From: Candidatus Undinarchaeota archaeon
GTDB lineage: Archaea > SpSt-1190 > DYHY01 > CAZGQF01
NCBI GenBank assembly: GCA_964527545.1
Contig: CAZGQF010000002.1
Span: 23,452-87,451, forward strand
Direction of reading: 5' to 3'
Length of the DNA stretch: 64,000 bases
The notes beneath the pieces were generated by a model. That model was not told where the DNA came from and searched no databases. It saw nothing but the letters and a program-made list of their open reading frames with translations. Each line of letters begins with the position of its first letter. Position 1 is the first letter of the stretch. The position numbers and the translations under genes are program-made. Below are positions 2,294-57,736 of the stretch, one piece after another.

Positions 2294-2369
2294 GGCCTTT
2301 TAGTTACTAATAGGTAGTAACATTTAAAAGAGCGCGTTGCGTAATTCAATTAGGGTAGGCGGAAAATCG

Positions 2370-22390: not shown

Positions 22391-22440
22391 GGAGCGGCCT
22401 GGTTCTCAAGATTTAAAAGAGGATGCGAAGCGCTTCTCCC

Positions 22441-36800: not shown

Positions 36801-39366
36801 CCTCAACGCTCGAGTTGGCGTCGATCTCGACACTCACGAAGCCGAACTCTGCAGGAGACGCCTTTGAGTTGTTGAGGGAGAGCGTGTGGCGGACGTTGAT
36901 GGTGCTGGGCTGGGGGAAAGGCGGGTTGGAGTAGCCGCGGAACTCTATCTCTTCGCCTCTCGAGAAGTCGTCAGTGTCTATCTCGTAGGTCCCAGTCCAG
37001 ACAGGAGTGCTGTTCCAGTTGCCTGCCGCGTCCCTCACTATGAAGGTGGCGTTGACCTCCGTGGAGTTGGGGAGCGACGAGAAGAACTTGATGCAACGGC
37101 CGTCCTCCACGTTGAGAGTCTCAGGCGTCTGCGCCGCGCCGTCGAAGTAGGCCGTTATGTTGCAATGCGTCGCACCACTATTGTCGTCGCTGACGTTTGC
37201 GTAGAAGACTGGCCTGTCGTTGGCCACCGTTTCGTTGACGGACGGCGAGACGCCTGTCACGTTCGGGTCTGTCCCGTCCACGGCGAGGTCGAGTCCGACA
37301 GTCAGGTTGGAGTAGCTGAAGCTGTCGGTCGCGTTGAAAGAGAGAGTGTGGTCGCCGCTGCCTCCAGGTATCTGGCAGGCGAGCGAGTAGTTGCCGTCAC
37401 CCGCCGAGCTGTCGATCCCTGCGCCGTCGTCCTTGAGCTCCGTCCAGCTCCCGCCGAGGGGAGTCAAGTTGAGTGTGAAGTTGGTGACCAAGCCGATGTC
37501 CTCCACTCTCGCGAAGACCTCGATCCAGTCGCCAGGCTTCACGACTGTGTCGTTGACCATGACGTCCAGTACGTCCGGCGCCGACCTGTCGATGGTGAGG
37601 TTGACCCGCTGGCTTGAGTTGTAGTGGCCGAAGGTGTCGTTGGCGAAAAAGATGATTGTCTGGTTGCCTTCCTCTGCCTCAGGCACGGTGTAGCGGGCAG
37701 AGTGGTTGCCGTCGCCCCCTGCGGCGTCTGGCTGGGAGCCGTCATCAAGAAGGCGGGCAGTGTTGAAGTCAACAATGTGCACGTAGGAGTAGGTTCCCGA
37801 TGCGTCGTAGTAGGTTATCAGCTCGTCAGTGCCGTCACCGTCACTGTCGATGGTCCCTTCCACGTAAAAACTGCTGATTATCTTGTCTGCAGTTAGGTTG
37901 AAGACGACGCTCCTGTTTACGAACGGATCGAAAAACCTTGAGTTGCCATAGTTGTTGCTGTCCGTGTAGACCAGCGTCTCCCTGTTTCCGCCGTAAAAGG
38001 AGCCCTTGCTCTGCGTTGAGGTTGTCAGCTCTCCGAACACGATCGGCGTATCAGCAATCTGTGTCTGGTTGTCGTAGAACTTCGAGTCGAAAATAATCTC
38101 CTTGCTTCCGTCCCCGTCGCTCTCGATGGCGACCAGGGACAACGAACTGGAGACCAACTCTGACGTGTTGTAGTACTCTTGTGTCTGGTTGTCGAAGATG
38201 TGGAGGTAGCTCGTAGTCGCATTCGAGTAGGCGATCTCCCCTGCACCGTCTCCGTCGATGTCGCCGCACACGAACTGCGAGGACTTTATGCTCGTATTCT
38301 CCAAGCGCCCTGTGGCGTTTTCGTAGATCATGACCCATTGTCCTGTTTTGTTCCTGAACAGTATCTCATCCGCACCGTCGCCGTTCACGTCGCAGAGATG
38401 GAGATACCCTGAGGCGTAATCCGTCACTGAATATGTCGTATTGGTCGAGTTGTCGAGGACGGCAACGTAGTAGCTGCTCATGTCTTCCGTGACGTTCAAA
38501 TAGACCACCTCGTTCTCGCCGTCGCCGTTCACGTCCCCGACTTGAGGCACAAATCCGAGCCTGCCGGTAGAGTCTGTCCTGCCGTTCGCAAAGTCCCTTA
38601 TCTCGATGGGAAAGCCAGTGGACCAGCTGCCCTCGGAGACGTTGTTGTAGACAAGTTCGTCCGCACCGTCGCCGTTCACGTCGCCCGATCCAAGCATGGG
38701 TGACCCTGTGTAGGTGAGCACGCTCGTGTTTGTCGATGCATGGTCGAAAGGCATCAACGCCTTGACGCCTTTTACATCACCGTCCGAGTTGTTGGCCATT
38801 GCATAGAGCTCGATGATTGAACCGTTTGTGACCAGCGTCTGGTTGACAGTGGCGTTGACAGTCGGCCAGGTTAGGTTGACATAGGTGTAGTTCTCTGCGT
38901 AGCAGGGCGCGTCTGTCGCGTTGTCCCGGGCGGTCGCGTTCCAGGTCACGTTGCCGTCTTTCCAGGCAGACATGAGGAGGGTTATGTTCAGGTAGTCGCC
39001 GGCGGTCGCATTCGGATAGTTTTCCTTGGGCGTGCAGTTGACTTTCTCCCTGTAGCCGTCGCTGTCCGAGTCCCAGACGCCGCACTCCCAGGCAGTCCCG
39101 TTCGCCTTCCCGGTCTCGTTCGACCACCATGTCGCCTCGGCGTAGGTGACATTGTAGTGCTCTCTCGGCGAGGTGATGTTCGAAAGTTCTGTCATGTTCC
39201 AGGACTCCGGCCCCTCGTTCCAGAGGGTGAAGTTGTAGTAGCGGGGGAGGGCAGACCCCACGTAGGCCGTCTCGTTGACAGTGAGATTTGCCGCGGCCGA
39301 GGCCAAGCCTAGCAGAAAGAGCAGGACCAGACCTTGCTTCAACACACGGAAGCAACTACAGACCAT
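33874..39366 (-). CDS. Giant integrin-like surface glycoprotein (FG-GAP-like repeats, Cys-rich stalk, TM, cytoplasmic tail)
   Basis: Signal peptide from ATG 39366 (track ORF extends to 39678); several D-x-N/D-G-D-G-x-x-E repeats; many N-x-S/T sequons; acidic linker; Cys-rich RCGDGLCEEDVCCEDCGC; TM VVIAAVVLLLLALAGG; about 110-aa tail. Confidence 0.7.
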   Translation of the reverse strand: MVCSCFRVLKQGLVLLFLLGLASAAANLTVNETAYVGSALPRYYNFTLWNEGPESWNMTELSNITSPREHYNVTYAEATWWSNETGKANGTAWECGVWDSDSDGYREKVNCTPKENYPNATAGDYLNITLLMSAWKDGNVTWNATARDNATDAPCYAENYTYVNLTWPTVNATVNQTLVTNGSIIELYAMANNSDGDVKGVKALMPFDHASTNTSVLTYTGSPMLGSGDVNGDGADELVYNNVSEGSWSTGFPIEIRDFANGRTDSTGRLGFVPQVGDVNGDGENEVVYLNVTEDMSSYYVAVLDNSTNTTYSVTDYASGYLHLCDVNGDGADEILFRNKTGQWVMIYENATGRLENTSIKSSQFVCGDIDGDGAGEIAYSNATTSYLHIFDNQTQEYYNTSELVSSSLSLVAIESDGDGSKEIIFDSKFYDNQTQIADTPIVFGELTTSTQSKGSFYGGNRETLVYTDSNNYGNSRFFDPFVNRSVVFNLTADKIISSFYVEGTIDSDGDGTDELITYYDASGTYSYVHIVDFNTARLLDDGSQPDAAGGDGNHSARYTVPEAEEGNQTIIFFANDTFGHYNSSQRVNLTIDRSAPDVLDVMVNDTVVKPGDWIEVFARVEDIGLVTNFTLNLTPLGGSWTELKDDGAGIDSSAGDGNYSLACQIPGGSGDHTLSFNATDSFSYSNLTVGLDLAVDGTDPNVTGVSPSVNETVANDRPVFYANVSDDNSGATHCNITAYFDGAAQTPETLNVEDGRCIKFFSSLPNSTEVNATFIVRDAAGNWNSTPVWTGTYEIDTDDFSRGEEIEFRGYSNPPFPQPSTINVRHTLSLNNSKASPAEFGFVSVEIDANSSVEEVTLDGTPLAYDKIENSTNDTVWFDVGTLSAGEKRDYFIDYNTTSLRNVNGTDRRNAEIVEGEPIKWTQNVTVVNDLIIGGTIQAIFPVPHDATNIRGVNWTVCDDCDNSSSTTGDFAKEVFFLGAGSSRKFNVTYDLPAPALTEETDTVFSSENETHVSWVEELTLENRASKEIDNVSVSFEAPTYNTTPYDLTYNGDAVPFEFSWPSWLNWTENATMPANSELTYNLEFETKKLNVSDVKWATPVKAEVAYPLNLSVVLQSYYGFSFWLDTEIVGLRTDRSDSDTLMPYENTTFSSNYEFDISDPAGVYTLRYNMTRTFYFDTPFSDTTTVTLLDTPVVPIELDQDEAEIGDWVEIEKGFFNNTGATATATYRFEIFDDDGELVINNTKYPVTWDGAIDLTSGDYADISRTKINRTNPPGTYSVYASLTSGTSYTALSRSGETINSSATFDIPTILDCSFNNEDITVGGTSRRSVQNIGNVATTLEVEIDEDEEEMYTDLEDEITLTPGQSRTIEIYVPTDDEGFEGTVTLKACDREVDVAVDVEPDLNGGGGFIGGGGDDDEEEEEGEEEEGNETEEVSQAETDFQELKDKIEEIRDLGIPLEIEQEVIEEIESMIAAGQLSDAETLISSLDSSIGTASVVDSYEPRMLTTSDVALELAKNYTNETDMEAINEEVIFEVEAEVVKWEVGGQTNYYTTITISAKLRSSKENALLVVTVPKDLAGDADSLRFFDQPIVFEDDPVFAYQLDTIGKTFRYQFLEDLDQGSLNMITTTAVAKRVPRCGDGLCEEDVCCEDCGCPEGEECNTSTHRCEEVEEEVDVEGAGGGISPVVIAAVVLLLLALAGGGYYLYKTKKDEGVNVAKVLESPDEYPIVYLTGYLKAVDEHNGNLTDDSGSIKVYSEGGLSDMSCMVKGRVENGILMAEEIIPVGNRLEKETQAGGGEGDTTTSGGFKGEETGSSPGTTGNQWTPPSQ

Positions 39367-39403
39367 TATTAAAGCTTTAAAGGGGCAGAGGGAGTTCGGG
39401 CGG

Positions 39404-39646
39404 GTGAGAGTCGAGGTCAAAGTCAGAACCAGCGCCCAAAAGGAGAGGATTGAGCTTGAGGACGGCCGCCTCGTCGTCTCCCTCAAGGAGCCAGCCAGGA
39501 AGGGAAAGGCCAATCTTGCCCTCGTGAAGCTCCTCGCCGGCAGGGCGGGCTGCTCTTCTGCAGAGGTGGCCTTTGTCAGCGGCCTCTCCTCGCGGAGGAA
39601 AGTACTTGAGTTTCCAGACTGCGAGATAGAGAAGCTGCTCGGATGA
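39404..39646 (+). CDS. YggU-like (DUF167/UPF0235) small protein
   Basis: VEVKVRTSAQKERIE...GKANLALVKLLA...VSGLSSRRKVLEF matches DUF167 pattern; in-frame GTG at 39404 proposed (track ORF from 39275 overlaps the signal-peptide end of the giant gene). Confidence 0.45.
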   Translation: MRVEVKVRTSAQKERIELEDGRLVVSLKEPARKGKANLALVKLLAGRAGCSSAEVAFVSGLSSRRKVLEFPDCEIEKLLG

Positions 39647-39830
39647 CTTTTGGCACGTTCGTGGCAAACCTCCCGCAATACTTATAAATGGCCTTTCTCT
39701 CCTCTCTGCAGAACTCACATCATCAGTTCGCATTCACTGTACATGGGAAGCGCCGGTTAACATTGATGTCTAGGCGCGGTTGCAGGGCAGCTCGGCTGAT
39801 TTTGCAGAGTTCTGAAGAAGGTGAAGAAGA

Positions 39831-41546: not shown

Positions 41547-42554
41547 TTGGCCACTTTCTTTCCCATGCGACTGCCGCGCGCCACACTCCTCCTTCTCTTC
41601 GTCAACCTGCTCGTCTTCAGGCTCGCGGCCGGCTCCTTCTTTGCTTCACCTCTCGTCTCAGAGATCTCCCGCTTCGGCCTCTCGCCCGCCAACCCGCTCT
41701 CTGTCTTCACCTACCAGTTCCTCCACCTCTGGCCAGCCCATCTCGCCACCAATCTCTTTCTCCTACTCGTCTTCGGCTCCATAGTGGAGGGGGCGGTCGG
41801 CGGACACAAGACGCTGGCCCTCTACCTCTGTGGCGGCGTCACCGGCGGCGTCGTCCATCTTTTCTTGGAGGGCGGGACGGTGGTCTCGGGCGCCAGCGCC
41901 AGCGTCTGGAGCGTGGTCGGGGCGGCCCTTGTTCTCCGCCCGATTCTCTCCTTCACTTCGTTCGCCGCTTCCCTGCTGCTCGTCCCTTTCGCTCTCCACC
42001 CGTCAGTGCAGTGGGCGAGAAGAAGCTGGGAGGAGGCGAGAGGCGAAGAGCTGGGAGCAGTGGTCTCCAGGGAGGAAGAGGCGAGAGGCGAGTTTTTCAG
42101 GACTGCGCAGGAGGTCGCGGAGCTGATGGAGAACAGGTCCTCGGCCGAGAGCGAAGCTGCGGCGAGGGAGGACGAGCTGGAGAGGCTGGAGGAGATGAAA
42201 AAGGCCGGAGAGCTCTCGCCCGAGGAGTATGAAGATAGGGCAGAGCCCCTCGAGGAGGCTTTGGAGGAGAGAGAGGCGGAGATACGCGAGCTGGAGGCGA
42301 GGGTCGAGGAAGAGGAGCGTCAGCTCAACCAGACGGGAGAGCAGCTCTCGCGCCTCTCAAGGCTCTCATCGTCGCTGAGAAGAGAGATGGAGCTCTTCTA
42401 CTACTCTTCCCAGCTTGAGCAGGAGACGGCCACAGCGGAAGCTCCGCACCTGGCAGGCCTCCTGACAGGCTATCTCATGGTCATTCTCTCGGAGCCGCTC
42501 GCCTTCGAGAGATGGAAAAGGTATTTTACGGACTGGTGCGGGAGTGGGCCATGA
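41547..42554 (+). CDS. Rhomboid-like membrane domain fused to charged coiled-coil region
   Basis: N-terminal polytopic domain with rhomboid-like HLxxNL...GxxxEG and GASASVWSVVGA; C-terminal approx 170 aa E/R/A-rich coiled coil. Confidence 0.5.
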   Translation: MATFFPMRLPRATLLLLFVNLLVFRLAAGSFFASPLVSEISRFGLSPANPLSVFTYQFLHLWPAHLATNLFLLLVFGSIVEGAVGGHKTLALYLCGGVTGGVVHLFLEGGTVVSGASASVWSVVGAALVLRPILSFTSFAASLLLVPFALHPSVQWARRSWEEARGEELGAVVSREEEARGEFFRTAQEVAELMENRSSAESEAAAREDELERLEEMKKAGELSPEEYEDRAEPLEEALEEREAEIRELEARVEEEERQLNQTGEQLSRLSRLSSSLRREMELFYYSSQLEQETATAEAPHLAGLLTGYLMVILSEPLAFERWKRYFTDWCGSGP

Positions 42555-43891
42555 AAGAGATTGTCGTGGGGCGTGACGAGTCGGATCGCCAGAGGTTCGG
42601 CGATACTGGCCTCTCTTACCTGGCCAAGCACTACGTGACCACCGGCGACAAGACCAACCTCGCCAACAAGGTGATGATGGACTTCGCCCGCCCCCACGTC
42701 GTCTTCATCTGCGGCAAGCGCGGACAGGGAAAGTCCTACACTCTCGGCGTGATGGCGGAGGAGATGACACTCCTCGAGCCGAAGCTGAGAAAAAGGCTGG
42801 CCAGCGTCATCTTTGACACGATGGGCATCTACTGGTCGATGAAGTTCCCCAACGAGAGGGGAGAGCCCCTCCTCAAGGAGTGGGACCTGGAGCCGAGGGC
42901 AGTCGACACCAATGTTGTCGTCCCCTTCGGCTTCGTCGACCAATATCGCGAGTGGGGAGTCCCAGTCGACGAGACTTTCGCCCTCAAGGCGAGCGAGCTG
43001 ACAGCCAGCGACTGGTGCGCCACCTTCGGCATCGACCTCTTTGACAAGATGGGCATTCTCATCGACCGCGTGGTGAAGAAGCTTAAGGAGGGGAGCGGGG
43101 ACTACTCGTTCGACGACTTTGTCGACGCTGTCGGCCAGGACGAGAGGGCCGACGTCTCCGTGAGGGACGCTGTGGAGAACCGCCTCATGGCTGCGGAGGA
43201 CTGGGGCCTCTTCCACAGGAAGGGGACGAGCCTGAGCAAGATAATCCAGGCAGGAAAGGTCAACGTCCTCGACATCTCTGTCTACGGCGGCGCCATAGGG
43301 GGCTGGTCGACCCGCTCACTCGTGGTCGGCCTCATAGTGAAGCGCGCCTTCGAGGCCAGGATGATGGCACGCAGGATGGAGGAGATGGGGGCGATAAAGA
43401 CGGCCCAGAGCGAGTTCCAGACTGAGGAGAAGCTCTACAAGGAGGCGGTCGAGAAGATGCCGATGACGTGGTTCTACCTCGACGAGGCGCACGAGATGAT
43501 GCCGCGCACAGGCTCCACTCCAGCCCTCGCACCGCTGGTCCAGCTGATCCGCGAGGGCCGCCAGCCCGGTCTCACGCTGGTCGCCGCCACGCAGCAGCCG
43601 GGAAAGATCCACACCGACATGATGAGCCAGACCGACCTTGTGGTCTCCCACCGCGTTACCTCTGTCCCCGACATGGGAGCGCTCAACAACATCATGGGCA
43701 CCTACATGAGGTTCAATCTTGAGAACTACCTCGCCTCCCTCCCCAGGGAGAAGGGGGCGGCAATCCTCCTCGACGACAATTCCGAGAAGGTCTATCCCAT
43801 CAGGATGCGGCCGCGCCTCTCCTGGCACGGCGGCGAGAGCGCGACGCTGCTGAGAAGCCACGAACAGGAGACCGTAGAGGGAGTGGGCTGA
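42551..43891 (+). CDS. HerA/FtsK-superfamily P-loop ATPase (DUF87-like)
   Basis: Walker A GKRGQGKS and Walker B WFYLDEAHE; ATG at 42551 overlaps the upstream stop (ATGA). Confidence 0.6.
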   Translation: MKEIVVGRDESDRQRFGDTGLSYLAKHYVTTGDKTNLANKVMMDFARPHVVFICGKRGQGKSYTLGVMAEEMTLLEPKLRKRLASVIFDTMGIYWSMKFPNERGEPLLKEWDLEPRAVDTNVVVPFGFVDQYREWGVPVDETFALKASELTASDWCATFGIDLFDKMGILIDRVVKKLKEGSGDYSFDDFVDAVGQDERADVSVRDAVENRLMAAEDWGLFHRKGTSLSKIIQAGKVNVLDISVYGGAIGGWSTRSLVVGLIVKRAFEARMMARRMEEMGAIKTAQSEFQTEEKLYKEAVEKMPMTWFYLDEAHEMMPRTGSTPALAPLVQLIREGRQPGLTLVAATQQPGKIHTDMMSQTDLVVSHRVTSVPDMGALNNIMGTYMRFNLENYLASLPREKGAAILLDDNSEKVYPIRMRPRLSWHGGESATLLRSHEQETVEGVG

Positions 43892-45772
43892 CTACTCCTC
43901 AAGCTTCGGGACCATCTTCTCAACCAGCAGTATGAGGTCGCGGATGTCCGTCTTTGTGGGCATCTCCTTCAGCTCCTCCTCCATAGTGCGGGCCACGTTG
44001 GAGATCCTGCGCAGGTCCGCCTCCATCTCCGAGAGCTTCTCCCTGGTCTCGTGGGGCGATGCCTCCTCCAGCCTCTCTATCTTGTCCAGGAGTTTCTCCA
44101 CGTGCTTTTCGTGGGACTCCACGCCCTTCTCCATCCTCGCCAGGTCGGCGGACGACGTGTTGACTTTGGCATTGACCTTCTCGACGCGGTCGAGAAGTGA
44201 GCGTATCTCCCCTCTAATTGAGGCCGCGACCTTTCTCGCCTCCTCCCCGCTGTCCATCGCCTTCATCTCTTCCTTGGTGACCGCCTTCTCGCCGAGCTTC
44301 TCGACCCTCTCGATCAGCGAGGCCTGAGCCTCGCCGATTCCCTTTACGCTCTTGGCGATGGTGTTGATCCTGTCGTTCAGTATGTCCCTCGTCTCCCTCA
44401 AGACGCCGACCTCCTTCTTCAGCTCGTCGCCCGGAACAGACTCCAATCTCTTCTTCATCTCATGGAGCGGCTCCTGGAGCGCCTTCTCGACCATCTCGCG
44501 CTCCCTCTCCTTGCTTCTCTCCATCCTGATCTGGAGTTCGTCAATGACCTCGCCCATCTCCGATGTTTTTTTCTCCAGTCTTGAGAAACGGTCGTCCGCT
44601 TCCATCCCTGCCAGGATGCGCTGGTTCTGGTCCACGACCTCCTCCAGGCGGTCGAAGTCCTCCCTTGCCCTGTCCAGGCTCGCGCCCATCCCCTTCATCT
44701 TCTCTATCTCGCCCTGGAGGTGCTCTTCTCTCTTGCTCAGCTCCTTCAGCGCGTTCATCACCCTTTCGCTCGATGCGACAGTCTCCTTCCCGCCGACTGT
44801 CTTGATCTCGTCCTTGAGGTCTTCAACCCCCCGCCTCAAGTTCCTCTCTGTCTCCTCCAGCTTCTCCGCCAGCCCCTGCTGGGCCGACTCGACCTTCTCT
44901 ATCCTGGCCATCCCGCCGCCTGCTGCCTTGGCTGCCTCCTCGACGGCCTCCAGCTTCGCCTCCAGCTTCTCCGCCCTCGCCTTCCCCGTCTCCTCGACCT
45001 CCCTTATCCTCTCGACAAGGCCCTCCTCCACAGTCTTGCTCAGCTCCAGCTCGCTCTTCAGCTCCTCCCTCTCTGTGGCGCCCCTCCTTATCTCCATCAG
45101 CTCCTTGCTGACTGTGTTGCTCAGCTCCGAGAGGTTCTCCACTTTCGTTTCCAGCTGTTCGCACTTGTCGTGGAGCCGCGAGGTAAGCTCCATGTTCTTG
45201 CCGAACTTCTCCCCAAGGGAGCCGGCCTTCTGGGAGAGCTCCATCTTCTCACTCTCGAAGGCGAGCGTCGACTTCTCCAGCTTGTTGAGCCTCCTCTCTA
45301 TTGCGTTGATCGAGCTTATCAGTGTCTCCCTGACATCTGAGAAGAGCCGGATCCGCTCGTTGAGCTGGTCCATCTTCCTCTCGAGCTCCGTGTCGTCGAG
45401 CTTCTCCGCGATGGCGGAGAGCTGTGACTCCCTTTTCTTGGTCTGCGCCGAGACCATTTTCACTTCTTTGGAGAGCCTTGCTATGGCGGACTCTATGTCT
45501 GACTGCTGGCGCCCCCGCGAGACTATCTCGTCGCTTATCCTCTCCAGCCTCTTCTGGAGCTCCCTGACCTCCTGCCTGGCCTTCTGGTCCTCTCCCGTCT
45601 CCGAGAACTCGAGGACCCTCTTCCTTATCACGCCGTAGGCCTTGGAAAGCTCATCCAGCCGCTTGGACTGCGCGGAGAGCCTTCCGTCCAGGGCCTCCAA
45701 ACTCTTGGCGAGGCCGTCTTTCTCTTTTCTACCCTCTCTCGGGCCGAGCAGATCGTCTATAACGTTAGCCAT
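43892..45772 (-). CDS. Long coiled-coil protein (~625 aa)
   Basis: Continuous heptad-like E/K/R/L-rich sequence without TM or nucleotide-binding motif; start at ATG 45772; 8-nt overlap with upstream gene. Confidence 0.55.
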   Translation of the reverse strand: MANVIDDLLGPREGRKEKDGLAKSLEALDGRLSAQSKRLDELSKAYGVIRKRVLEFSETGEDQKARQEVRELQKRLERISDEIVSRGRQQSDIESAIARLSKEVKMVSAQTKKRESQLSAIAEKLDDTELERKMDQLNERIRLFSDVRETLISSINAIERRLNKLEKSTLAFESEKMELSQKAGSLGEKFGKNMELTSRLHDKCEQLETKVENLSELSNTVSKELMEIRRGATEREELKSELELSKTVEEGLVERIREVEETGKARAEKLEAKLEAVEEAAKAAGGGMARIEKVESAQQGLAEKLEETERNLRRGVEDLKDEIKTVGGKETVASSERVMNALKELSKREEHLQGEIEKMKGMGASLDRAREDFDRLEEVVDQNQRILAGMEADDRFSRLEKKTSEMGEVIDELQIRMERSKEREREMVEKALQEPLHEMKKRLESVPGDELKKEVGVLRETRDILNDRINTIAKSVKGIGEAQASLIERVEKLGEKAVTKEEMKAMDSGEEARKVAASIRGEIRSLLDRVEKVNAKVNTSSADLARMEKGVESHEKHVEKLLDKIERLEEASPHETREKLSEMEADLRRISNVARTMEEELKEMPTKTDIRDLILLVEKMVPKLEE

Positions 45773-46463
45773 CTTCCTTGAACTCCACGAAGGTCTTTGT
45801 GGGGCAGAGCCCTTCAACTCTCTTCTTTCCCGCGCCCCCTATCGCGACCAGGGCGAAACAGCCCTGGAGACGTGACTGCTCTGAGAGAACAGTTAATATT
45901 GCTTCTGCAGAGCGCCCCGTCCTTATGACGTCGTCGACGAAGAGCGTCTTCGTCGAGGAGCTGCAGACCTCTGCAGGCAGGTAGAGGGGACGGGCGGTCC
46001 CCTTCTCGTCGAAGATGTTGATCTCTATGTAGTCTTTCACTCCCAGCTTCTTTCTCTCGCGGAGGTAGCCGATCCTCGCCCCGATCTCCTTTGCCAGCAG
46101 CGTGGCGACGGGCAGGCCGTCCTCCGTGGTGACTACCAGTTCCACCTTTTCGTAGTCTCCAGCCACCGCTTTTGCAATTGAAGAGAGCAGCTTAACGTCT
46201 GTTAGGAGGTCGATGTCGTTGATGAACCTTCCGAACTTCAATATCTTGCTTTTCGCCTCTTCCTTCAACCTTCCCCCATAGAGGGAGATTATCATCCCAC
46301 TCTTCTCCTGGTTGGGCAGTACCCTGCCCTTAACGTAGCGGTTGAGGACCGTTATGGGGAGGCCGGTCTCGCCGGAGAGCTTCTTGTAGGTCTTCTCCCT
46401 CTTCTCCCTCTTCAGGAGCTGGACTGCCCGGAGAGAACGTTTTACCCTTCCCAGCCTTCGCAT
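45765..46463 (-). CDS. HTH plus phosphoribosyltransferase-like regulator (GfcR/PyrE2-like)
   Basis: N-terminal HTH (TYKKLSGETGLPITVLNRYVKG) and C-terminal PRTase motif TLFVDDVIRTGRS. Confidence 0.5.
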   Translation of the reverse strand: MRRLGRVKRSLRAVQLLKREKREKTYKKLSGETGLPITVLNRYVKGRVLPNQEKSGMIISLYGGRLKEEAKSKILKFGRFINDIDLLTDVKLLSSIAKAVAGDYEKVELVVTTEDGLPVATLLAKEIGARIGYLRERKKLGVKDYIEINIFDEKGTARPLYLPAEVCSSSTKTLFVDDVIRTGRSAEAILTVLSEQSRLQGCFALVAIGGAGKKRVEGLCPTKTFVEFKEDG

Positions 46464-46543: not shown

Positions 46544-47542
46544 ATGCTCCCTGACAAGCTGGAGGAGGGCGACGAGGTCAGAGTCATCGCACCGTCCAGG
46601 TCGCTCTCCATAATCTCTTCCGACGTGAGAAAGCTGGCTGAGAGAAACCTCGAGTCCCTCGGCCTGGAGGTCACATACTCTGAGCACGCCGAGGAGTCGG
46701 GCGAGTTCAGATCGCCTTCGCTCTCCTCCCGCCTCTCCGACATACATGCCGCCTTCTCTGACTCGGGCGTGAAGGCGATACTCTCCTCCATTGGTGGCTG
46801 GAACGCCAATCAGCTGCTTCCCCATCTCGACTACTCCCTCATAGCCCAGTGCTCCAAGATATTCTGCGGCTACTCTGACATCACCGCCCTCCAGAACGCC
46901 ATCTATGCAAAGACGGGCATGGTCACTTACTCAGGGCCGCACTTCTCGTCCTTCGGCATGGAGGAAGGCCTTGAGTATACAGTCGAGTATTTCAGGAAGT
47001 GCCTCTTCTCGGAGTCGCCATTCGAGATACTGCCTTCGCCCCGATGGAGCGAGGACGAGTGGTTCATCGACCAGGAGGACAGGACTTTCATAGACAACCC
47101 AGGCCACTTCATCATAAACGAGGGCCTTGCGAACGGGGAGATAGTCGGGGGAAACCTCGGCACGTTCTCCCTTCTCAAGGGAACAGAGTACATGCCAGAT
47201 CTCGAGGGCAAAGTCCTCTTCTTCGAGGACTGCCTTGAGTCGCCCACATCATATCTCTGTGACTTCGACCGCGAGCTCACCTCCCTCATGCAGCAGCCCG
47301 GATTCGAGGACGTGGAGGCCATAGTGCTGGGCAGGCTACAGTCCGTGAAGGGTCTGACCCGCCAGCGCCTCAAGGAGAAGCTTGTTCTCCTGGTTGAGGC
47401 CAAGTCTGAGCTCGACAACATTCCAGTGATCGGGGGCGTCGACTTCGGCCACACCACCCCCCAGATCACTTTCCCAATAGGCGGCACGGTCGAGATAGCG
47501 GCAGAAGGAGACGAGACTGAGATAAAAATGATGATGCACTGA
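46544..47542 (+). CDS. LD-carboxypeptidase (peptidase S66, MccF/LdcA-like)
   Basis: GDEVRVIAPS N-terminus, GYSDITAL nucleophile region, FGHTTPQ C-terminal His motif. Confidence 0.6.
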   Translation: MLPDKLEEGDEVRVIAPSRSLSIISSDVRKLAERNLESLGLEVTYSEHAEESGEFRSPSLSSRLSDIHAAFSDSGVKAILSSIGGWNANQLLPHLDYSLIAQCSKIFCGYSDITALQNAIYAKTGMVTYSGPHFSSFGMEEGLEYTVEYFRKCLFSESPFEILPSPRWSEDEWFIDQEDRTFIDNPGHFIINEGLANGEIVGGNLGTFSLLKGTEYMPDLEGKVLFFEDCLESPTSYLCDFDRELTSLMQQPGFEDVEAIVLGRLQSVKGLTRQRLKEKLVLLVEAKSELDNIPVIGGVDFGHTTPQITFPIGGTVEIAAEGDETEIKMMMH

Positions 47543-51158: not shown

Positions 51159-51857
51159 ATGAAACCAATAGTGGTTCTTGATGATGTCTGGAAGACATAT
51201 AGAATGGGAGAGGTCGATGTCCCCGCAATAAGGGGCGTCAGCCTCGAGATCAAGCAGGGCGACTTCGTGGCTGTCACGGGCCCCTCGGGCAGCGGGAAGT
51301 CAACAATGCTAAACATGATAGGCTGTTTGGATGCGCCGACGCGCGGAACAATTCACCTGAAGGGCCAGAGCATAACCACGTTGCCTGAATCGCGCCTCTC
51401 GGAGCTGAGGGGAAGGACCATTGGATTCATCTTTCAGCAGTACAACCTGATCCCGTCGGTCGATGCCTACTCAAACGTCATACTGCCGCTTGAGTTCCAA
51501 GAGGTCGATGACGACGAGGCAGACAAGAGGGTCAGGGAGGTCATGGAGAGGGTTGGTCTGGGCGGTTTCATGCACCATCTGCCCACGGAACTCTCCGGCG
51601 GTCAGCAGCAGAGGGTCGCGATAGCGAGGTGCCTGGTCTCCAGGCCGGAGATGATACTGGCGGACGAGCCGACAGGCTCCCTCGACAGCGTCACCGGTGA
51701 GAACATAATCGGCATGCTGAGGGAGTTCTGGGAGGAGGGGAAGACAGTGGTCATCGTGACGCACAACCCAGAGCTTGCAAAGTTCGCTCACACGACTGTC
51801 GGACTTCAGGACGGCATGGTAGTCGAGACAAAGGTAAACAAGGAGACAAAGAGATGA
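51159..51857 (+). CDS. ABC transporter ATP-binding protein (MacB/LolD-type)
   Basis: Walker A GPSGSGKST, signature LSGGQQQRV, Walker B ILADEPT. Confidence 0.85.
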   Translation: MKPIVVLDDVWKTYRMGEVDVPAIRGVSLEIKQGDFVAVTGPSGSGKSTMLNMIGCLDAPTRGTIHLKGQSITTLPESRLSELRGRTIGFIFQQYNLIPSVDAYSNVILPLEFQEVDDDEADKRVREVMERVGLGGFMHHLPTELSGGQQQRVAIARCLVSRPEMILADEPTGSLDSVTGENIIGMLREFWEEGKTVVIVTHNPELAKFAHTTVGLQDGMVVETKVNKETKR

Positions 51858-53125
51858 CAAAAATGAAGAAAAGAAAGATGCTTGAAAGAACGGTTTTGAT
51901 GACCTTTTTGTTTGGTCTTCTGGTCGGCGGGGCCTCCGCGGAAACGGGCTCCGTCACCCTCAACCTGGTCAACCAAGACCCCGACCCAGCAGTCGCTGGG
52001 CGTCTCGTGGAGATAAGGCTCGGCCTGGAGAACAGGGGAAGCGAGACGCTCAATGACCTCAAAGTGAAGCTGGCTCCGGAGTATCCCTTCGAGCTCCTGC
52101 CGGGCAGTGACGGCATAGTGAGTGTGGGCTCCCTGAGGCCCTTCCAGAGCGACGAGGAGATCAGCATAGTGAAGGCCAGGCTGAACAGCTTTTCTGGGGC
52201 AACTTCCGGCTCTTACGACTTGGACGTCTTCGTCTATGAGAGCGGAAGGGAGAACCAGACCAAGGTAAGGAGGACAGTCAGTCTCGAAATCGAGAGCAGG
52301 GAGATGGTAGCGGTGACGGACATAAGCAGGTCTGCGCTACTGCCTGGGGAGAAGGGCGAGCTGTCCTTCACCCTCAAGAACGTGGGGTCCGCATCTCTGC
52401 AGGATGTCACATTTTCGTGGACAAGCGAGGACGACGCAATACTCCCCGTCAACTCGCCGAATTCGAGGACCCTCCCAGAAATTGGGGCGGGTGAGAGCGT
52501 GGAACTCAAGTACGATGTCATGGCAAGCACGGGCGTGGCCGCGGGGCTGTACAAGCTCAGCATGGAGATAAGCTATGACGATCCCATCACTGATGAGAAT
52601 GCATCGGAGGAGAGCGTCGCAGGGGTTTACGTGGGGGGAGGGACAGATTTCGAGGTGGCTTTTTCCGGCTCTTCCGACGAGGACTTCACATTTTCCATAG
52701 CCAACACAGGCGCAAACCCGTCCTACTCTGTTGCTGTCCACGTCCCTGAACAGGATGGTTGGAGGGCGGCAGGGACGGACACTTCGATAATCGGCAACCT
52801 TGAACAGGGCGACTACACCGTTGTGACCTTCCAGCTGGAGGGGACCAGGAACAGCGGTGAGCTCGCCCTGGAGATAAGGTACACGGATACTGCAGGCGAG
52901 AGAAGGGTTTTGAGTAAGAAGGTAAGCATGCCTTTTTCGCTGGCCAGCGGGACCTCGTCTGCAATTGAGTCTGTCAGGACATCAAATGAATCGGGGAGGC
53001 CGAGGGGGATGAATATGGTGCCCCAAGAAGGCGCACTCTCGCGGCTGTGGGAGCAGGTCAAGCTGCCCCTTCTTGCAGTTGCCGCCTTGGCAGGGCTCTG
53101 GCTCTACAGAAAGAAGAAGGGATGA
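51854..53125 (+). CDS. Secreted beta-sandwich protein with C-terminal TM anchor (CARDB/COG1361-like ABC partner)
   Basis: Signal peptide, three approx 110-aa repeats, C-terminal LPLLAVAALAGLWLY anchor; ATGA overlap with the ATPase gene. Confidence 0.55.
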   Translation: MTKMKKRKMLERTVLMTFLFGLLVGGASAETGSVTLNLVNQDPDPAVAGRLVEIRLGLENRGSETLNDLKVKLAPEYPFELLPGSDGIVSVGSLRPFQSDEEISIVKARLNSFSGATSGSYDLDVFVYESGRENQTKVRRTVSLEIESREMVAVTDISRSALLPGEKGELSFTLKNVGSASLQDVTFSWTSEDDAILPVNSPNSRTLPEIGAGESVELKYDVMASTGVAAGLYKLSMEISYDDPITDENASEESVAGVYVGGGTDFEVAFSGSSDEDFTFSIANTGANPSYSVAVHVPEQDGWRAAGTDTSIIGNLEQGDYTVVTFQLEGTRNSGELALEIRYTDTAGERRVLSKKVSMPFSLASGTSSAIESVRTSNESGRPRGMNMVPQEGALSRLWEQVKLPLLAVAALAGLWLYRKKKG

Positions 53126-53129
53126 GCGG

Positions 53130-54332
53130 ATGAAGCTGGCCAAGAGTCTTAGTCGCGCCTTTGGGATAGTCGCCCACAGCAAGTTGAGGAGCTGGCTTAC
53201 CATAATCGGCGTAGTCATTGGCGTGGCATCTGTCATAGCGATAGTCTCCATGGGGAAAGGCATGCAGGCCTCCGTGGAAGAGGGGCTGGGAGGACTTGGA
53301 GCGGACCTGATAACAATAACGCCGGGCGCTTCGAGAGGCTTCGGCAGGGGACCTTTCAGGATGGAGACGGGTGCGGTGGAAGAGGAGGTCACCCTCGACG
53401 ACAAGGACGTCCTTGCCTTGAAGCTGATTGTCGGTATAGACGAGATAAGCCCTGAGATATCGGGTAACGTCGAGGTCAGCTACTTGAGCAAGTTTGCCAA
53501 AGTCAACATAAGAGGAATAGACCCCTCCGTCTGGCCGAAGGTTACGACAGAGGAAGTGGTCGGGGGGAGGATGTTTGGCCCTGCGGACAGGAATGTCGTC
53601 CTGATAGGGAGCAGGCTGGCCGAGGACTATTTCGACTCGCCGGTTGGGCTGAACCAGAGGATCCAGGTCGAGGGCGGCTCTTATAGGGTTGTTGGCATAC
53701 TGGACGGCGGCTCCACGGTCTACATGCCCATGCAGAGCGCCTACAGTCTTCTGGACGACGTGGAGCGGGGGACATATGGTTCCATAGTCGTCAAGATTAG
53801 GGAGGGTGGGGACCTGGACGCCGTCAGGGAGGAGATTGAGAGGCGGCTTAGGATATCAAGGAACGTCTCCGAGAAGGAACAGGATTTCTCTGTGAGCGAC
53901 CCGTCTGCCTTCAGCGAGAGGATAAGCGAGGTGAGCACCACAATGACCACCTTCCTGGCAGGGATAGCTGCAATCTCGCTGGTGGTCGGCTCCGTCGGCA
54001 TAGCGAACACCATGTTCACCTCCGTCTTGGAGAGGACAAAGGACATTGGGATAATGAAGGCGATAGGGGCCAGGAACCGCGACGTGTTCACAATTTTCAT
54101 TTTCAGTTCCGCCCTGCTCAGTCTCTTTGGCGGTATCATAGGGGTCGCCCTCGGGATCTGGCTCTCTACTTTGGTGGGTCCTGTGATGGGTACGGGCGTT
54201 CAGGGCGTTGTTACCCCAGATGTGGTAGCCGGCTCCCTTTCCATCTCTGTTGTGGTCGGGCTGGTCTCCGGCTTTGCTCCCGCCTACAAGGCATCAAAGC
54301 TGAAGCCGGCAGAAGCGTTGAGATGGGGTTAG
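53130..54332 (+). CDS. ABC transporter permease (FtsX/MacB-type)
   Basis: N-terminal TM, large periplasmic-type domain, C-terminal 3-TM FtsX-like bundle; start at ATG 53130. Confidence 0.75.
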   Translation: MKLAKSLSRAFGIVAHSKLRSWLTIIGVVIGVASVIAIVSMGKGMQASVEEGLGGLGADLITITPGASRGFGRGPFRMETGAVEEEVTLDDKDVLALKLIVGIDEISPEISGNVEVSYLSKFAKVNIRGIDPSVWPKVTTEEVVGGRMFGPADRNVVLIGSRLAEDYFDSPVGLNQRIQVEGGSYRVVGILDGGSTVYMPMQSAYSLLDDVERGTYGSIVVKIREGGDLDAVREEIERRLRISRNVSEKEQDFSVSDPSAFSERISEVSTTMTTFLAGIAAISLVVGSVGIANTMFTSVLERTKDIGIMKAIGARNRDVFTIFIFSSALLSLFGGIIGVALGIWLSTLVGPVMGTGVQGVVTPDVVAGSLSISVVVGLVSGFAPAYKASKLKPAEALRWG

Positions 54333-54374: not shown

Positions 54375-54839
54375 ATGGCCGAGCAGGTCGTCACTTTTGG
54401 GGCTGGCTGCTTCTGGCACGTCCAGGCCGCCTTCGACAAGATCGACGGCGTGGTCGAGACGACAGTGGGATACATGGGCGGCGACTTTGCGGAGCCGACC
54501 TATGAAGAGGTCCACACCGGAAAGACCGGCCACGCAGAGGTCTGCCAGGTAATCTACGACACCGAGAAGGTCTCTTTCGGGAAGCTGCTCGACGTCTTCT
54601 GGTCGATACACGACCCGACACAGGTCGACAGGCAGGGGCCGAACGTCGGCCCCCAGTACCGCTCTGTCGTCTTCTTCCACTCAAAAGAGCAGAGGGAGAA
54701 GGCCCTGGCCTCGCGGGAGAGGGAGGCGGAGAGGCGCGAGGAAGAGATAGCGACTGAGATTCTTCCTGCAAAGACGTTCTGGAAGGCGGAAAACTGCCAC
54801 CAGAAATACTACAAGAAGGGGCCTCTCAGCCTCTTATGA
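54375..54839 (+). CDS. msrA: Peptide methionine sulfoxide reductase MsrA
   Basis: Catalytic GCFWH/GAGCFW motif near the N-terminus and HDPT region. Confidence 0.85.
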   Translation: MAEQVVTFGAGCFWHVQAAFDKIDGVVETTVGYMGGDFAEPTYEEVHTGKTGHAEVCQVIYDTEKVSFGKLLDVFWSIHDPTQVDRQGPNVGPQYRSVVFFHSKEQREKALASREREAERREEEIATEILPAKTFWKAENCHQKYYKKGPLSLL

Positions 54840-55271
54840 CCGCTTTTCCCACGGGAAGACCAGCCACTCGTTGCCTGTCTTCTTCCAGTAGAAGTCTGGC
54901 TCGAACTCACTCTCCTTTTTGAGGTAGAGGGTCGCGGTGCAGACATCACCTTCGAAGAGCTGGCCTATCCTCTCCATGGTGATCCCCTTCTGGACCACTT
55001 CGTCGACGAGAAGCGTCTTGCCCTCCGGCAGTTCGAGGGGCAGCTGGTAGACTTCGAGCTCTCCCCCTTCGCCGCCTTCATACCTCTTCGCCCCCACTGA
55101 GTATGCCTTTCTCACGTCGAACCTGTTTGCGAGTAGGAGGGCAGGGAACCAGCCGCCCTTGGCTATGCCGACCACATTGCTCGGCCTGCCCCACTCCGCC
55201 TCAATCCTGTCCGCCAGGCAGTCCACGCCATCCTTTAAGTCCTGATAGGTGACTTCTATCTCTTCCGCCAT
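54834..55271 (-). CDS. Purine phosphoribosyltransferase (type I PRTase, Gpt-like)
   Basis: PRPP-binding motif LLVDEVVQKG; about 145 aa. Confidence 0.6.
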   Translation of the reverse strand: MAEEIEVTYQDLKDGVDCLADRIEAEWGRPSNVVGIAKGGWFPALLLANRFDVRKAYSVGAKRYEGGEGGELEVYQLPLELPEGKTLLVDEVVQKGITMERIGQLFEGDVCTATLYLKKESEFEPDFYWKKTGNEWLVFPWEKRS

Positions 55272-55377
55272 CTCCCGCCTGCGTCTCCCGCCTTTTTAGT
55301 TTTAACGAGTGACAAGTTTGGCGAGATGTGTTGGGTCTGTGCTCTGCTCCAGAAAGGGTTATATCTCTGGGGTGAGG

Positions 55378-57255
55378 ATGGCGGCCATGAAAAAGGCAGT
55401 CCTCTTTTTGGCCTTGATCCTTTTGACGCCCGCCTTCGCGGAGACAATTAGTGACGCCTGCGGAAACGGCGTGGGATGGAGCGACAATACGGCAGAGCCC
55501 CATTGCGAAACGCAGGACTGCTGCGCCTGGTACCAGACGACACATGTCCACGACCTCGGCGAGATCGCCTCCGGCCAGCTCGAGGTCGAGTTCATGCCCA
55601 GCTTCTCTGCTGGCTGCCAGCCCGGCCCGGGGAGCGGCATCTGGGTCTCCGAAGGCGGCCCGGTTGAAGACGACGAAAGCTGGATGCAGTGGAGCTGGGA
55701 GAAGATCTACACGATCACCGAAACCACGCAGTCTGAAGGGGGCTGGTGGCACAAGTACTCTGAGACGTTCCAGGTCTCAAACACGCGATACGTGAAGGTC
55801 TCCATCGAGAACTGCTACAACGACTACTCCAAAGCCACTCTCTCCGCGGACGAGCCCGCAGCTGAGTGCGGGAACGGCATCATCGAGGAGGGCGAGATGT
55901 GCGAAAGCGACGCGGACTGCTACGAAGGCGAGTGCATCGATTGCCAGTGCTTCGCGTCTACGTCTGTCTGCGGCGACGGCATCTTATCATCAGACGAAGA
56001 GTGCGAGACCGACGCAGACTGTCCAACAGACATGGCCTGTGCAGAGTGCGAGTGCATCGACTCCGTCTGCGGCGACGGCATCCTCTCAGCTGACGAGATG
56101 TGCGAGACAGATGACCACTGTCCGCCGGGCTTGATCTGCGCCGAGTGCGAGTGCATCGAGACAGGCTCTGTCTGCGGCGACGGCATCCTCTCAGCTGACG
56201 AGATGTGCGAGACAGACGACCACTGTCCGCCGGGCTTGATCTGCGCCGAGTGCGAGTGCATCGAGACAGGCTCTGTCTGCGGCGACGGCATCCTCTCAGC
56301 TGACGAGATGTGCGAGACAGACGACCACTGTCCGCCGGGCTTGATCTGCGCCGAGTGCGAGTGCATCGAGACAGGTCCTGTCTGCGGCGACGGAGTGATA
56401 GAGGGAGAAGAGGAGTGCGAGTACGATTACGACTGTTTGGAAGGCGAGGAGTGCGACAACTGCGTCTGTGAGCCGTTTGAGCCGGTCTGCGGCGACGGCA
56501 TCCTCTCGTCAGACGAGGAGTGCGAAGACGATGGAGACTGCGACCAGGGCGAGTTCTGCGAGAACTGCGAGTGCGAGTCTCCTGTTTGCGGCGACGGAGT
56601 GATAGAGGGTTGGGAGGACTGCGAAGGCGACTGGGACTGCATGGAGACCGGCGAGACCTGCATAGACTGCAGCTGCATCCACACAGGCTCTGTCTGCGGC
56701 GACGGCGTGATAGAGGGAGAAGAGGAGTGTGAGTACGATTACGACTGTCTGGAAGGCGAGGAGTGCGACAACTGCGTCTGCGAGGAAGCAGGTCCTGTCT
56801 GCGGAAACGGCATCGTGGAAGCGGGGGAGACTTGCGAGAGCGACATGGACTGCGCCGGCGACTTCTACTGCGACAACTGTGAGTGCAAGCCGATTGCCCC
56901 CACGCCGGAAGAGGGGGTGGGCCAAGAGGAGCCAGTTAGGTGTCCGGGCAGGCCGGACTGCGGCGACGGCATACTCTCCGCTGACGAAGAGTGCGAGTCG
57001 GATGGCGACTGCATGGCTCCTTTCTCGTACTGCAGCTGCTGCGAGTGCCTGTCGACCTGCGGCGACGGCGACGTCGACGCGGGGGAGGAGTGCGAGTCGG
57101 ACCTTCACTGTGGAGAAGGTAGTGAGTGCGTCGGCTGCAGGTGCGTGAGGGAGGGGGTCGGCGGGGGTTCCGGACAGACCGAACAGCTCAACAGGATAGC
57201 TGAACTCTTGGAGGAGCTGATCTCCATACTGAGGGGCCTTTTCGGCGGTCAGTAG
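55378..57255 (+). CDS. Secreted cysteine-rich repeat protein (CGDG-x-EECE-x-D-x-DC repeats)
   Basis: Signal peptide MAAMKKAVLFLALILLTPAFA; about 12 repeats of approx 35 aa each beginning (V)CGDG; start at ATG 55378. Confidence 0.65.
   Translation: MAAMKKAVLFLALILLTPAFAETISDACGNGVGWSDNTAEPHCETQDCCAWYQTTHVHDLGEIASGQLEVEFMPSFSAGCQPGPGSGIWVSEGGPVEDDESWMQWSWEKIYTITETTQSEGGWWHKYSETFQVSNTRYVKVSIENCYNDYSKATLSADEPAAECGNGIIEEGEMCESDADCYEGECIDCQCFASTSVCGDGILSSDEECETDADCPTDMACAECECIDSVCGDGILSADEMCETDDHCPPGLICAECECIETGSVCGDGILSADEMCETDDHCPPGLICAECECIETGSVCGDGILSADEMCETDDHCPPGLICAECECIETGPVCGDGVIEGEEECEYDYDCLEGEECDNCVCEPFEPVCGDGILSSDEECEDDGDCDQGEFCENCECESPVCGDGVIEGWEDCEGDWDCMETGETCIDCSCIHTGSVCGDGVIEGEEECEYDYDCLEGEECDNCVCEEAGPVCGNGIVEAGETCESDMDCAGDFYCDNCECKPIAPTPEEGVGQEEPVRCPGRPDCGDGILSADEECESDGDCMAPFSYCSCCECLSTCGDGDVDAGEECESDLHCGEGSECVGCRCVREGVGGGSGQTEQLNRIAELLEELISILRGLFGGQ
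56065..56379 (+). repeat. Three near-perfect 105-bp tandem repeats inside the Cys-rich protein gene
   Basis: Unit GTCTGCGGCGACGGCATCCTCTCAGCTGACGAGATGTGCGAGACAGA(T/C)GACCACTGT...ATCGAGACAGGCTCT begins at 56065, 56170 and 56275; one mismatch between copies. Confidence 0.85.
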
Positions 57256-57277: not shown

Positions 57278-57736
57278 TTGGCCCAAAAACATAATTACAG
57301 GACTGCAGGTATATTTACGGTCAGCGAAAAGATGCAGGCGATAACTTACAATACTGGCGGCCACGTGGACGAGCTCGAGGCGAGGGAGAAGTTGCTTGGC
57401 TTCTACGCCAGGGGCGACATCTCCGGCGCTTATGAATTCATGTCCCAAGCCCTCTCAGACCGGCTCCTCGAGCCGTCCGATTTGGAGACTGTCAGGGGGG
57501 AGGTCGCCAGGACAGAGAAGCTGGCAAAGGCTGCCAGGTCGGTGCGCAGGTCCCTGATAAACATGGGGAAGAAAGAGAAGGCCAGGGAGTTTTATGGCAA
57601 GTACTCCTATCTCATCAAGTTCGTCGGCTTCTCCAACGTCTCGATGGAGGCATTGAGGGAGAGGGAGTCGGAGGAGCTGCGTGCAAACGAGATGCGGGAC
57701 GAGATGGCGGGGTATTTGAAGCAGTCTCTCGCTTGA
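57278..57736 (+). CDS. Hypothetical protein
   Basis: 152-aa ORF, helical charged composition. Confidence 0.4.
   Translation: MAQKHNYRTAGIFTVSEKMQAITYNTGGHVDELEAREKLLGFYARGDISGAYEFMSQALSDRLLEPSDLETVRGEVARTEKLAKAARSVRRSLINMGKKEKAREFYGKYSYLIKFVGFSNVSMEALRERESEELRANEMRDEMAGYLKQSLA

Follow-up and report, generated by a model that had tools for sequence, protein, structure and literature searches.

The alpha C and Rib proteins of group B Streptococcus and the Als proteins of Candida are built from a head, a stalk and an anchor, and the copy number of the stalk units can change by recombination, a variation that is well documented. Another class of repeat, the Myxococcus cysteine-rich repeat or DUF4215 (PF13948, TIGR02232, IPR011936), forms tandem modules of ~31–36 amino acids (aa) in secreted multidomain proteins. 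Large extracellular Cys-rich proteins with weak similarity to the Myxococcus repeat have been described in Peribacteria, where they are proposed to act in attachment and are reported to vary from strain to strain (Anantharaman et al. 2016; PMC4736985), and a DUF4215 protein is a component of the adhesive trails of diatoms (bioRxiv 10.1101/2023.03.06.531300). Here we describe a Cys-rich repeat gene in a 64,000-nt stretch of an assembly assigned to a Candidatus Undinarchaeota archaeon (GCA_964527545.1, contig CAZGQF010000002.1, positions 23,452–87,451; hereafter the window). We consider it fairly likely that its product is a secreted, probably cell-surface, protein of the lectin or adhesin type, made up of a head, a disulfide-rich acidic stalk and a C-terminal helix, and the published context from Peribacteria and diatom trails fits with an adhesin.

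The predicted product runs from a signal peptide through a lectin-fold head, an acidic stalk and a flexible linker to a terminal helix (Table 1), and it is this order of parts that suggests an adhesin or lectin. The signal peptide would be removed after Sec export, and the disulfide-stabilised CBM32/discoidin-like head would then bind a ligand, probably a glycan. The twelve six-Cys modules, each with three putative disulfides, would form an elongated, acidic, disulfide-rich stalk that holds the head away from the cell. At the other end, the C-terminal helix would attach the protein to the envelope or oligomerise, at the position where relatives carry PGF/PEF-CTERM-like or transmembrane (TM) anchors. 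Head and tail, both overlooked in the initial annotation of this DNA, are more telling about function than the repeats. Repeats as such are commonplace in proteins of this sort.

Table 1 Features of the repeat gene and its product, in window coordinates
Feature	Position	Strand	Description
Intergenic region with Shine–Dalgarno-like GGTGAGG	55272..55386	+	Common to the repeat gene and the divergent phosphoribosyltransferase gene (54834–55271, −)
Coding sequence	55387..57255	+	622 aa from ATG 55387, 625 aa from ATG 55378; stop TAG 57253–57255
Sec-type signal peptide MKKAVLFLALILLTPAFA	55387..55440	+	Predicted cleavage after AFA, before ETISD; read from the sequence by eye
N-terminal head, residues 22–163	55441..55866	+	Predicted jelly roll, a divergent relative of F5/8-type-C (discoidin)/CBM32 domains
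Array of 12 Cys-rich modules	55867..57177	+	33–53 aa each, six Cys; seven Cys in modules 10 and 11
Three near-identical 105-bp units (modules 3–5)	56065..56379	+	Near-perfect period-105 tract at 56064–56393
Module 6 core	56383..56472	+	One copy of a non-adjacent duplicated unit
Module 9 core	56695..56784	+	Other copy of the non-adjacent duplicated unit
Pro/Glu-rich linker KPIAPTPEEGVGQEEPVRCPGRPD	56887..56958	+	Joins modules 10 and 11; one extra Cys
C-terminal amphipathic helix TEQLNRIAELLEELISILRGLFGGQ	57178..57252	+	Last 25 aa; resembles the C termini of 11 other head-family proteins

The open reading frame (ORF) that contains the gene (55309–57255, + strand) is the only long one in its region with homologues. 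We regard it as a real coding sequence because head and repeats both have homologues and because the differences between modules 6 and 9 are all synonymous in this frame. Residues are numbered here from the ATG at 55378 (625 aa), which had been proposed as the start; it is in frame and adds three residues, but the probable start, judged from the surrounding sequence, is the ATG at 55387, with a Shine–Dalgarno-like GGTGAGG (55371–55377) 10 nt upstream of it. A scan for sigma-70-type promoters, which does not cover archaeal promoters, found none upstream of the gene.

A HMMER search with the head against 1.84 billion representative proteins retrieved 50 proteins at E ≤ 1e-3, 18 of them at E ≤ 1e-10. 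The domain (~130 aa) is present in 55 copies in these 50 proteins, which are 114–1,939 aa long, and it can be N-terminal, internal or C-terminal. Nearly all family members with an intact N terminus begin with a signal peptide, as does the target, and the protein's earlier description as secreted is borne out to this extent. Six Cys together with D26, H37, G12 and S130 are invariant in the family alignment (A1), and H35 and D38 are nearly so, giving a signature of DCCxWYQTxHVHDLG … RYVKVxIxxCYNDYS. Further searches added little: a word-indexed protein search had no match to the head alone and eight unnamed proteins for the head alignment, no relative turned up in a scan of genome contigs with the first 200 aa, and a metagenome scan yielded four distant head-domain loci and no orthologue.

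The link of this family to a known fold comes from its other members and from structure prediction. The Pfam F5/8 type C model (PF00754) is matched by 21 of the 30 aligned members (best E 1.3e-10), and the record of P0180 carries a precomputed PF00754. When folded with the family alignment, AlphaFold2 gave the head a mean predicted local distance difference test (pLDDT) of 92.6 and a predicted template modelling score (pTM) of 0.87. According to this model, the head adopts a galactose-binding-domain-like β-sandwich fold, of which it is a divergent representative rich in disulfides. Solved CBM32 structures share 8–16% sequence identity with the target head, and the head family differs from CBM32 in having a signature of its own, with six invariant Cys, D26, H35-x-H37-D38 and CYNDYS.

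Between head and tail lies the array; the protein as a whole has 80 Cys in 625 aa (12.8%). When the 64 kb were translated in all six frames, the regular expression CG[DN]G-x4-7-E-x-C matched exactly 12 units at 55867–57177 and had no match outside that interval, which makes precise an initial estimate of about 12 repeats. A 'CGNG' near the N terminus (residue 28) was considered as a thirteenth repeat and rejected, as it belongs to the head-domain signature. The module consensus is CG[DN]G-x5-E-x-C-E-x-D-x-[DH]-C-x4-5-C-x2-C-x-C. One extra Cys stands in the linker between modules 10 and 11 and one more in module 11; the total of 80 is an even number, so full pairing of the Cys would be possible. 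The array is strongly acidic (Asp+Glu 29.5%, Lys+Arg 1.1%, Cys 16.9%), with an isoelectric point (pI) of about 4. We rejected the idea that this acidity reflects an acidic proteome of the halophile type, as the neighbouring proteins span pI 4.7–9.4.

Disulfide-rich domain modelling, which the initial annotation had put forward as a check, was carried out with AlphaFold2 on modules 6–8, using an alignment of 24 three-module windows. The resulting model is of moderate confidence (pLDDT 78.8, pTM 0.39) and renders every module as a loop, a short turn and a β-hairpin, strung together like beads on a string. No solved structure resembling the modules was found with this model.

Searched as a whole, the protein had 439 database matches, nearly all of them DUF4215 or 'cysteine-rich repeat' proteins and all at ≤35% identity, in keeping with the extracellular Cys-rich repeat modules first proposed for it. 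The DUF4215 model itself (PF13948) matched in a single stretch (residues 351–397; 21 bits, E 4.1e-4), below its gathering threshold of 27 bits, and no NCBIfam model matched at E ≤ 1. All 12 modules have in common with DUF4215 the half CG[DN]G-x5-[ED]-x-C, whereas the second half is DDGN-x4-DGC-x3-C with four Cys in DUF4215 and E-x-D-x-D-C-x4-5-C-x2-C-x-C with six Cys in the target. C[DE][DEP]GN is absent from all 12 target units, each of which has 6–7 Cys. A profile–profile comparison (hhalign) of six-Cys units (CGDG-x5-E-x-C-E-x3-C-x4-5-C-x2-C-x-C; alignment A4) with canonical units (CGDG-x5-EECDDGN-x4-DGC-x3-C; alignment A5) aligned columns 1–17 only, at E 7e-9 and a probability of 95.8%, leaving the second half unaligned. 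Judged by these comparisons, the modules appear to be a short six-Cys variant related to DUF4215, one that fails its threshold and half its motif.

Six-Cys units are also found in other proteins, where they are either interleaved with canonical DUF4215 units (P0001, P0002, which is named Peribacteraceae, P0008, P0020, P0023, P0070 and P0119) or form arrays (P0006, P0024, P0048 and P0056). P0001 and P0002 are the best full-length matches to the target and proteins of the Peribacteria type; they carry the same six-Cys modules, and their best-scoring Pfam matches are the canonical DUF4215 units. Peribacteria-type proteins come from bacteria, are larger and have different domains at the N terminus (for example Fib_succ_major in P0001) and a C-terminal TM segment with a basic anchor, whereas the target is archaeal and has a CBM32-like head and a helical tail.

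The tail recurs within the head family. Among the C termini of the other 50 family members there are 11 such tails, including those of P0129 (…AINRLADVLEKLIQLFTLVFGQ…), P0064 and P0165 (…ETKGLLEKIIEFFKKLFGF…), and seven hydrophobic TM anchors, including the PGF-CTERM-like P0133 (locus L027) and the PEF-like P0162 and P0167. A hidden Markov model (HMM) built from the 11 tails, with the target left out, matched target residues 603–623 (E 9e-5); it scored nothing else above 4 bits in ~170 proteins and found only the expected genes among 826 ORFs of all loci. P0064 has the same plan as the target (head, Cys-rich region, tail), and its gene adjoins an archaeal-length L3 gene, RtcB and archease. The hydrophobic moment of the target's tail is 0.58, a value exceeded by 1.75% of shuffles, with L-I-L-L-L-L at the heptad a/d positions and the motif …LLExLIxxLxxLFG. 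The maximum 17-residue Kyte–Doolittle mean was 0.6–1.4 for tail-bearing relatives against at least 2.0 for TM-anchored relatives, the target's own tail not being among those scored.

In its extreme C-terminal position after the last extracellular module, the tail corresponds to the PGF-CTERM (archaeosortase A) and PEF-CTERM signals. It differs from both in having no tripeptide, no membrane-spanning stretch and no basic end, and is instead a predicted helix of 21–25 aa ending in LFG. No NCBIfam sorting-signal model matched the target, PGF-CTERM sorting of it was rejected since the motif is absent, and we found no published description of the tail motif. Apart from its PGF-CTERM-like end, P0133 contains a different kind of Cys-rich repeat ('CPxGCxCLTKEEA') and, at positions 1885–1952 of its locus (Ga0190367_1001237), (Pro-Thr)n linkers whose coding DNA is a short, imperfect microsatellite.

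We then turn to the repeats at the DNA level. Tandem Repeats Finder reported one array scoring at least 80 in the 64 kb, at 55963–56393, with period 105, 4.2 copies, 90% matches and a score of 657. Within it lie three near-identical units (56065–56169, 56170–56274 and 56275–56379) that had been said to differ by one nucleotide. The three tandem units stand, but the differences are 3 nt in 315 (99% identity). Units 1 and 2 are 1 nt apart (56112 T/C, GAT/GAC, synonymous) and units 2 and 3 are 2 nt apart (GGC TCT versus GGT CCT, one change synonymous and one Ser to Pro). Exact 31-mers are common to the units over 56065–56111 (47 nt) and 56113–56375 (263 nt). A further ~90-bp unit, also reported as duplicated (about 56378–56472 and 56690–56784), is real, but its two copies, the cores of modules 6 and 9, are not in tandem: their starts are 312 nt apart. 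Their first 60 nt are 95% identical, and their first 30 codons have four differences. The modules other than these near-identical ones have 52–77% DNA identity.

Such near-identity cannot be chance. The 99% identity of modules 3–5 agrees with the recent expansion that the initial annotation proposed, and these modules probably arose by two very recent in-frame tandem duplications, or by equivalent unequal recombination, which would have made the stalk longer by two modules (70 aa). The module 6/9 pair would be an older duplication or conversion, and its copies appear to have been kept since under purifying selection, as all four differences between them are synonymous. Compared with the alpha C/Rib and Als proteins, which have many identical units, three of the 12 modules here are near-identical, and the module folds are unrelated. 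We also considered a diversity-generating retroelement target and rejected it. The seven repeat differences (five T/C or C/T, one A to C and one C/T in the Ser-to-Pro codon) are not adenine-specific, and no reverse transcriptase was found among the flanking genes scanned.

Other data on the copy number are few. No second strain or close orthologue was present in any collection searched. An exact look-up of the protein with starts at 55309, 55372, 55378 and 55387 found no record, and the neighbouring proteins are on record (from an NCBI contig of 479,389 bp and from Logan SRR15425350), each as a single-member cluster, so that one genome only is represented. The Logan contigs of SRR15425350 match the window exactly; they stop at 55449 (L001) and resume at 56751 (L025), leaving a gap at 55450–56750. 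The start of L025 is explained by a 31-mer common to 56438–56468 and 56750–56780. L001 stops at the junction of signal peptide and head, where no k-mer of at least 15 nt is repeated in the window; a polymorphism, a drop in coverage or a repeat elsewhere in the metagenome could account for this stop.

Variation in repeat number is plausible, and we somewhat doubtfully entertain the view that the gene encodes an actively variable surface protein, in which RadA-dependent unequal recombination or slippage would make cells differ in module number, stalk length or antigenic form. Modules 3–5 are 99% identical across 315 nt and share exact stretches as long as 263 nt, which leaves the units able to misalign, and copy-number variation is documented for the alpha C protein of group B Streptococcus and for Als of Candida. 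The strain variation of Cys-rich extracellular proteins in Peribacteria (PMC4736985) also speaks for it. The evidence here comes, however, from one genome and from just three copies; the units are multiples of 3 nt, so changes in their number would alter length without switching expression on or off; and the 52–77% DNA identity of the other nine modules indicates an array that has for the most part long been stable. Neither of the two relatives with DNA at hand (L026 and L027) has recent long tandem units, so recent expansion is not a general trait of the family. The copy number might instead be an assembly artefact, the repeat being real and the number of middle units wrong because short reads cannot count them, which we think unlikely. 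The independent assembly of SRR15425350, made with k = 31, has its break between 55449 and 56751, and by our reasoning arrays of three, four, five or more units would contain the same k-mers for any k below about 210, with the middle unit traversable any number of times. Against this, the 479-kb contig suggests a good assembly, and fewer than three units are excluded if the three single-nucleotide differences are real, since only the middle unit combines C at 56217 with CT at 56271–2. Three is thus the minimum count if the contig was made from short reads only. It is less likely still that gene conversion homogenised three pre-existing modules in a form of concerted evolution with no recent gain. 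Modules 6 and 9, which are 95% identical though non-adjacent, are easier to explain by conversion or ectopic recombination than by tandem duplication; modules 3–5, by contrast, are contiguous, share their linkers too (IETGS/P) and show 330 nt of unbroken identity, the signature of tandem duplication.

The function of the protein is open to other readings as well. It could be a secreted cation- or metal-binding protein, with the Cys and ExDxD residues of the array taking up Ca2+, Zn2+ or other metal ions, for example to scavenge or detoxify metals or to attach to minerals where oxygen is absent. The acidity and Cys content of the array relative to the neighbouring proteins, its recurring C-E-x-D-x-[DH]-C motif and the markers of anaerobic metabolism on the contig are in favour of such a role, which we nevertheless judge very improbable: the protein has an even number of Cys, the six invariant ones in each module are typical of three disulfides, homologous repeats are found in aerobic Myxococcota and in eukaryotes, and an architecture with a CBM32-like head and such a tail suggests binding or anchoring. 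Several observations weigh against the lectin or adhesin that we favour. The target head itself had no Pfam match at E ≤ 1, and the best E value of the head-family profile against a CBM32 sequence in the PDB was 0.47. Sugar binding is predicted from fold and family, not from conserved ligand residues, and the invariant HxHD and Asp residues could form a metal site or serve a role other than that of a lectin. The stalk may be a rigid disulfide rod, but the model of its modules is only moderately confident and has no structural neighbour. Pyruvate:ferredoxin oxidoreductase is encoded on the contig, hinting at an anaerobe, which puts in question the formation and persistence of ~40 disulfides. 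The tail is predicted to be too weakly hydrophobic to span a membrane, and the neighbouring genes suggest no functional link. A bolder proposal, which we regard as improbable, would make the tail a new archaeal signal for surface attachment or assembly and the head a new CBM32-related family, specific to archaeal surfaces, with an HxHD site that might bind metal. The tail could in that case be an in-plane anchor in the membrane or surface layer, or an oligomerisation coil, and thereby an alternative to the PGF-CTERM/archaeosortase system.

The gene is flanked by genes for an ATP-binding cassette (ABC) ATPase, a CARDB/NEW3 protein, a MacB–FtsX permease, MsrA, the divergent phosphoribosyltransferase, a 152-aa protein and a major facilitator superfamily transporter. 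The ABC ATPase, the CARDB/NEW3 protein (which has a signal peptide and a C-terminal TM segment with a basic anchor) and the MacB/FtsX permease are encoded just upstream (51159–54332, +). The 152-aa ORF (57278–57736, +) begins with TTG 22 nt past the stop codon of the repeat gene and encodes a basic protein (pI 8.8) without a Pfam match; its exact product is on record, hence it has been called as a gene, and it may be co-transcribed with the repeat gene. Two antisense ORFs within the repeats (55920–56366 and 56509–57108) have no homologues and were set aside as by-products of the GC-rich repeat. GC content is 0.53–0.62 over the window, and the repeat gene is no outlier.

The gene content marks the window as archaeal, in agreement with its assignment: it encodes an archaeal-type DnaG (NCBIfam PRK04031, 471 bits), DUF2070, an ATP-dependent DNA ligase, DUF7544 and DUF7343, and has an 89-nt tRNA gene (1792–1880, −; Rfam, 55 bits). 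ARAGORN could not assign an anticodon to this tRNA, which is probably an intron-containing archaeal one. The genome is not among the GTDB species representatives, and a scan of genome contigs with the DNA ligase retrieved only relatives with at most 37% identity, in metagenome-assembled genomes of Patescibacteria and other bacteria.

Elsewhere in the window, a 1,934-aa ORF (33874–39678, −) with a weak FG-GAP match, 16% Asp+Glu and a Gly/Thr/Ser-rich C terminus may encode another giant surface protein; FG-GAP proteins are also found among the Cys-rich set of Peribacteria. A 485-aa ORF (2337–3794, +) is made up of 28% Lys+Arg, has no Cys and no Pfam match, and coincides with a strong purine skew (GC +0.29, AT +0.27). 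A HerA/DUF87-type ATPase (42512–43891, +) adjoins a highly charged, coiled-coil-like ORF of 641 aa (43892–45817, −), in a region where the strand skew is strongly negative. A homologue of the LdcA-like muramoyltetrapeptide carboxypeptidases (46544–47542, +; E 5e-34, below the cut-off) and a MraY/WecA-family transferase (22423–23385, +) may be related to the chemistry of envelope glycans or of a pseudomurein-like polymer.

Uncultivated archaea and bacteria of the candidate phyla radiation invest heavily in large Cys-rich extracellular proteins, which are suspected of mediating attachment to hosts, partners or surfaces. The repeat gene is a compact example in which each part can be delimited from the sequence. 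Its six-Cys module falls outside current domain models and is without a solved structure, its tail helix may represent a new means of retaining proteins on the surface of archaeal cells, and the apparently recent duplication suggests that the stalk can be lengthened one module at a time. Should the copy number prove to be polymorphic, this would be a rare documented case of a size-variable surface protein in archaea, and if the readings of tail and head are true, uncultivated archaea would possess a modular adhesin system with a stalk extendable by recombination.

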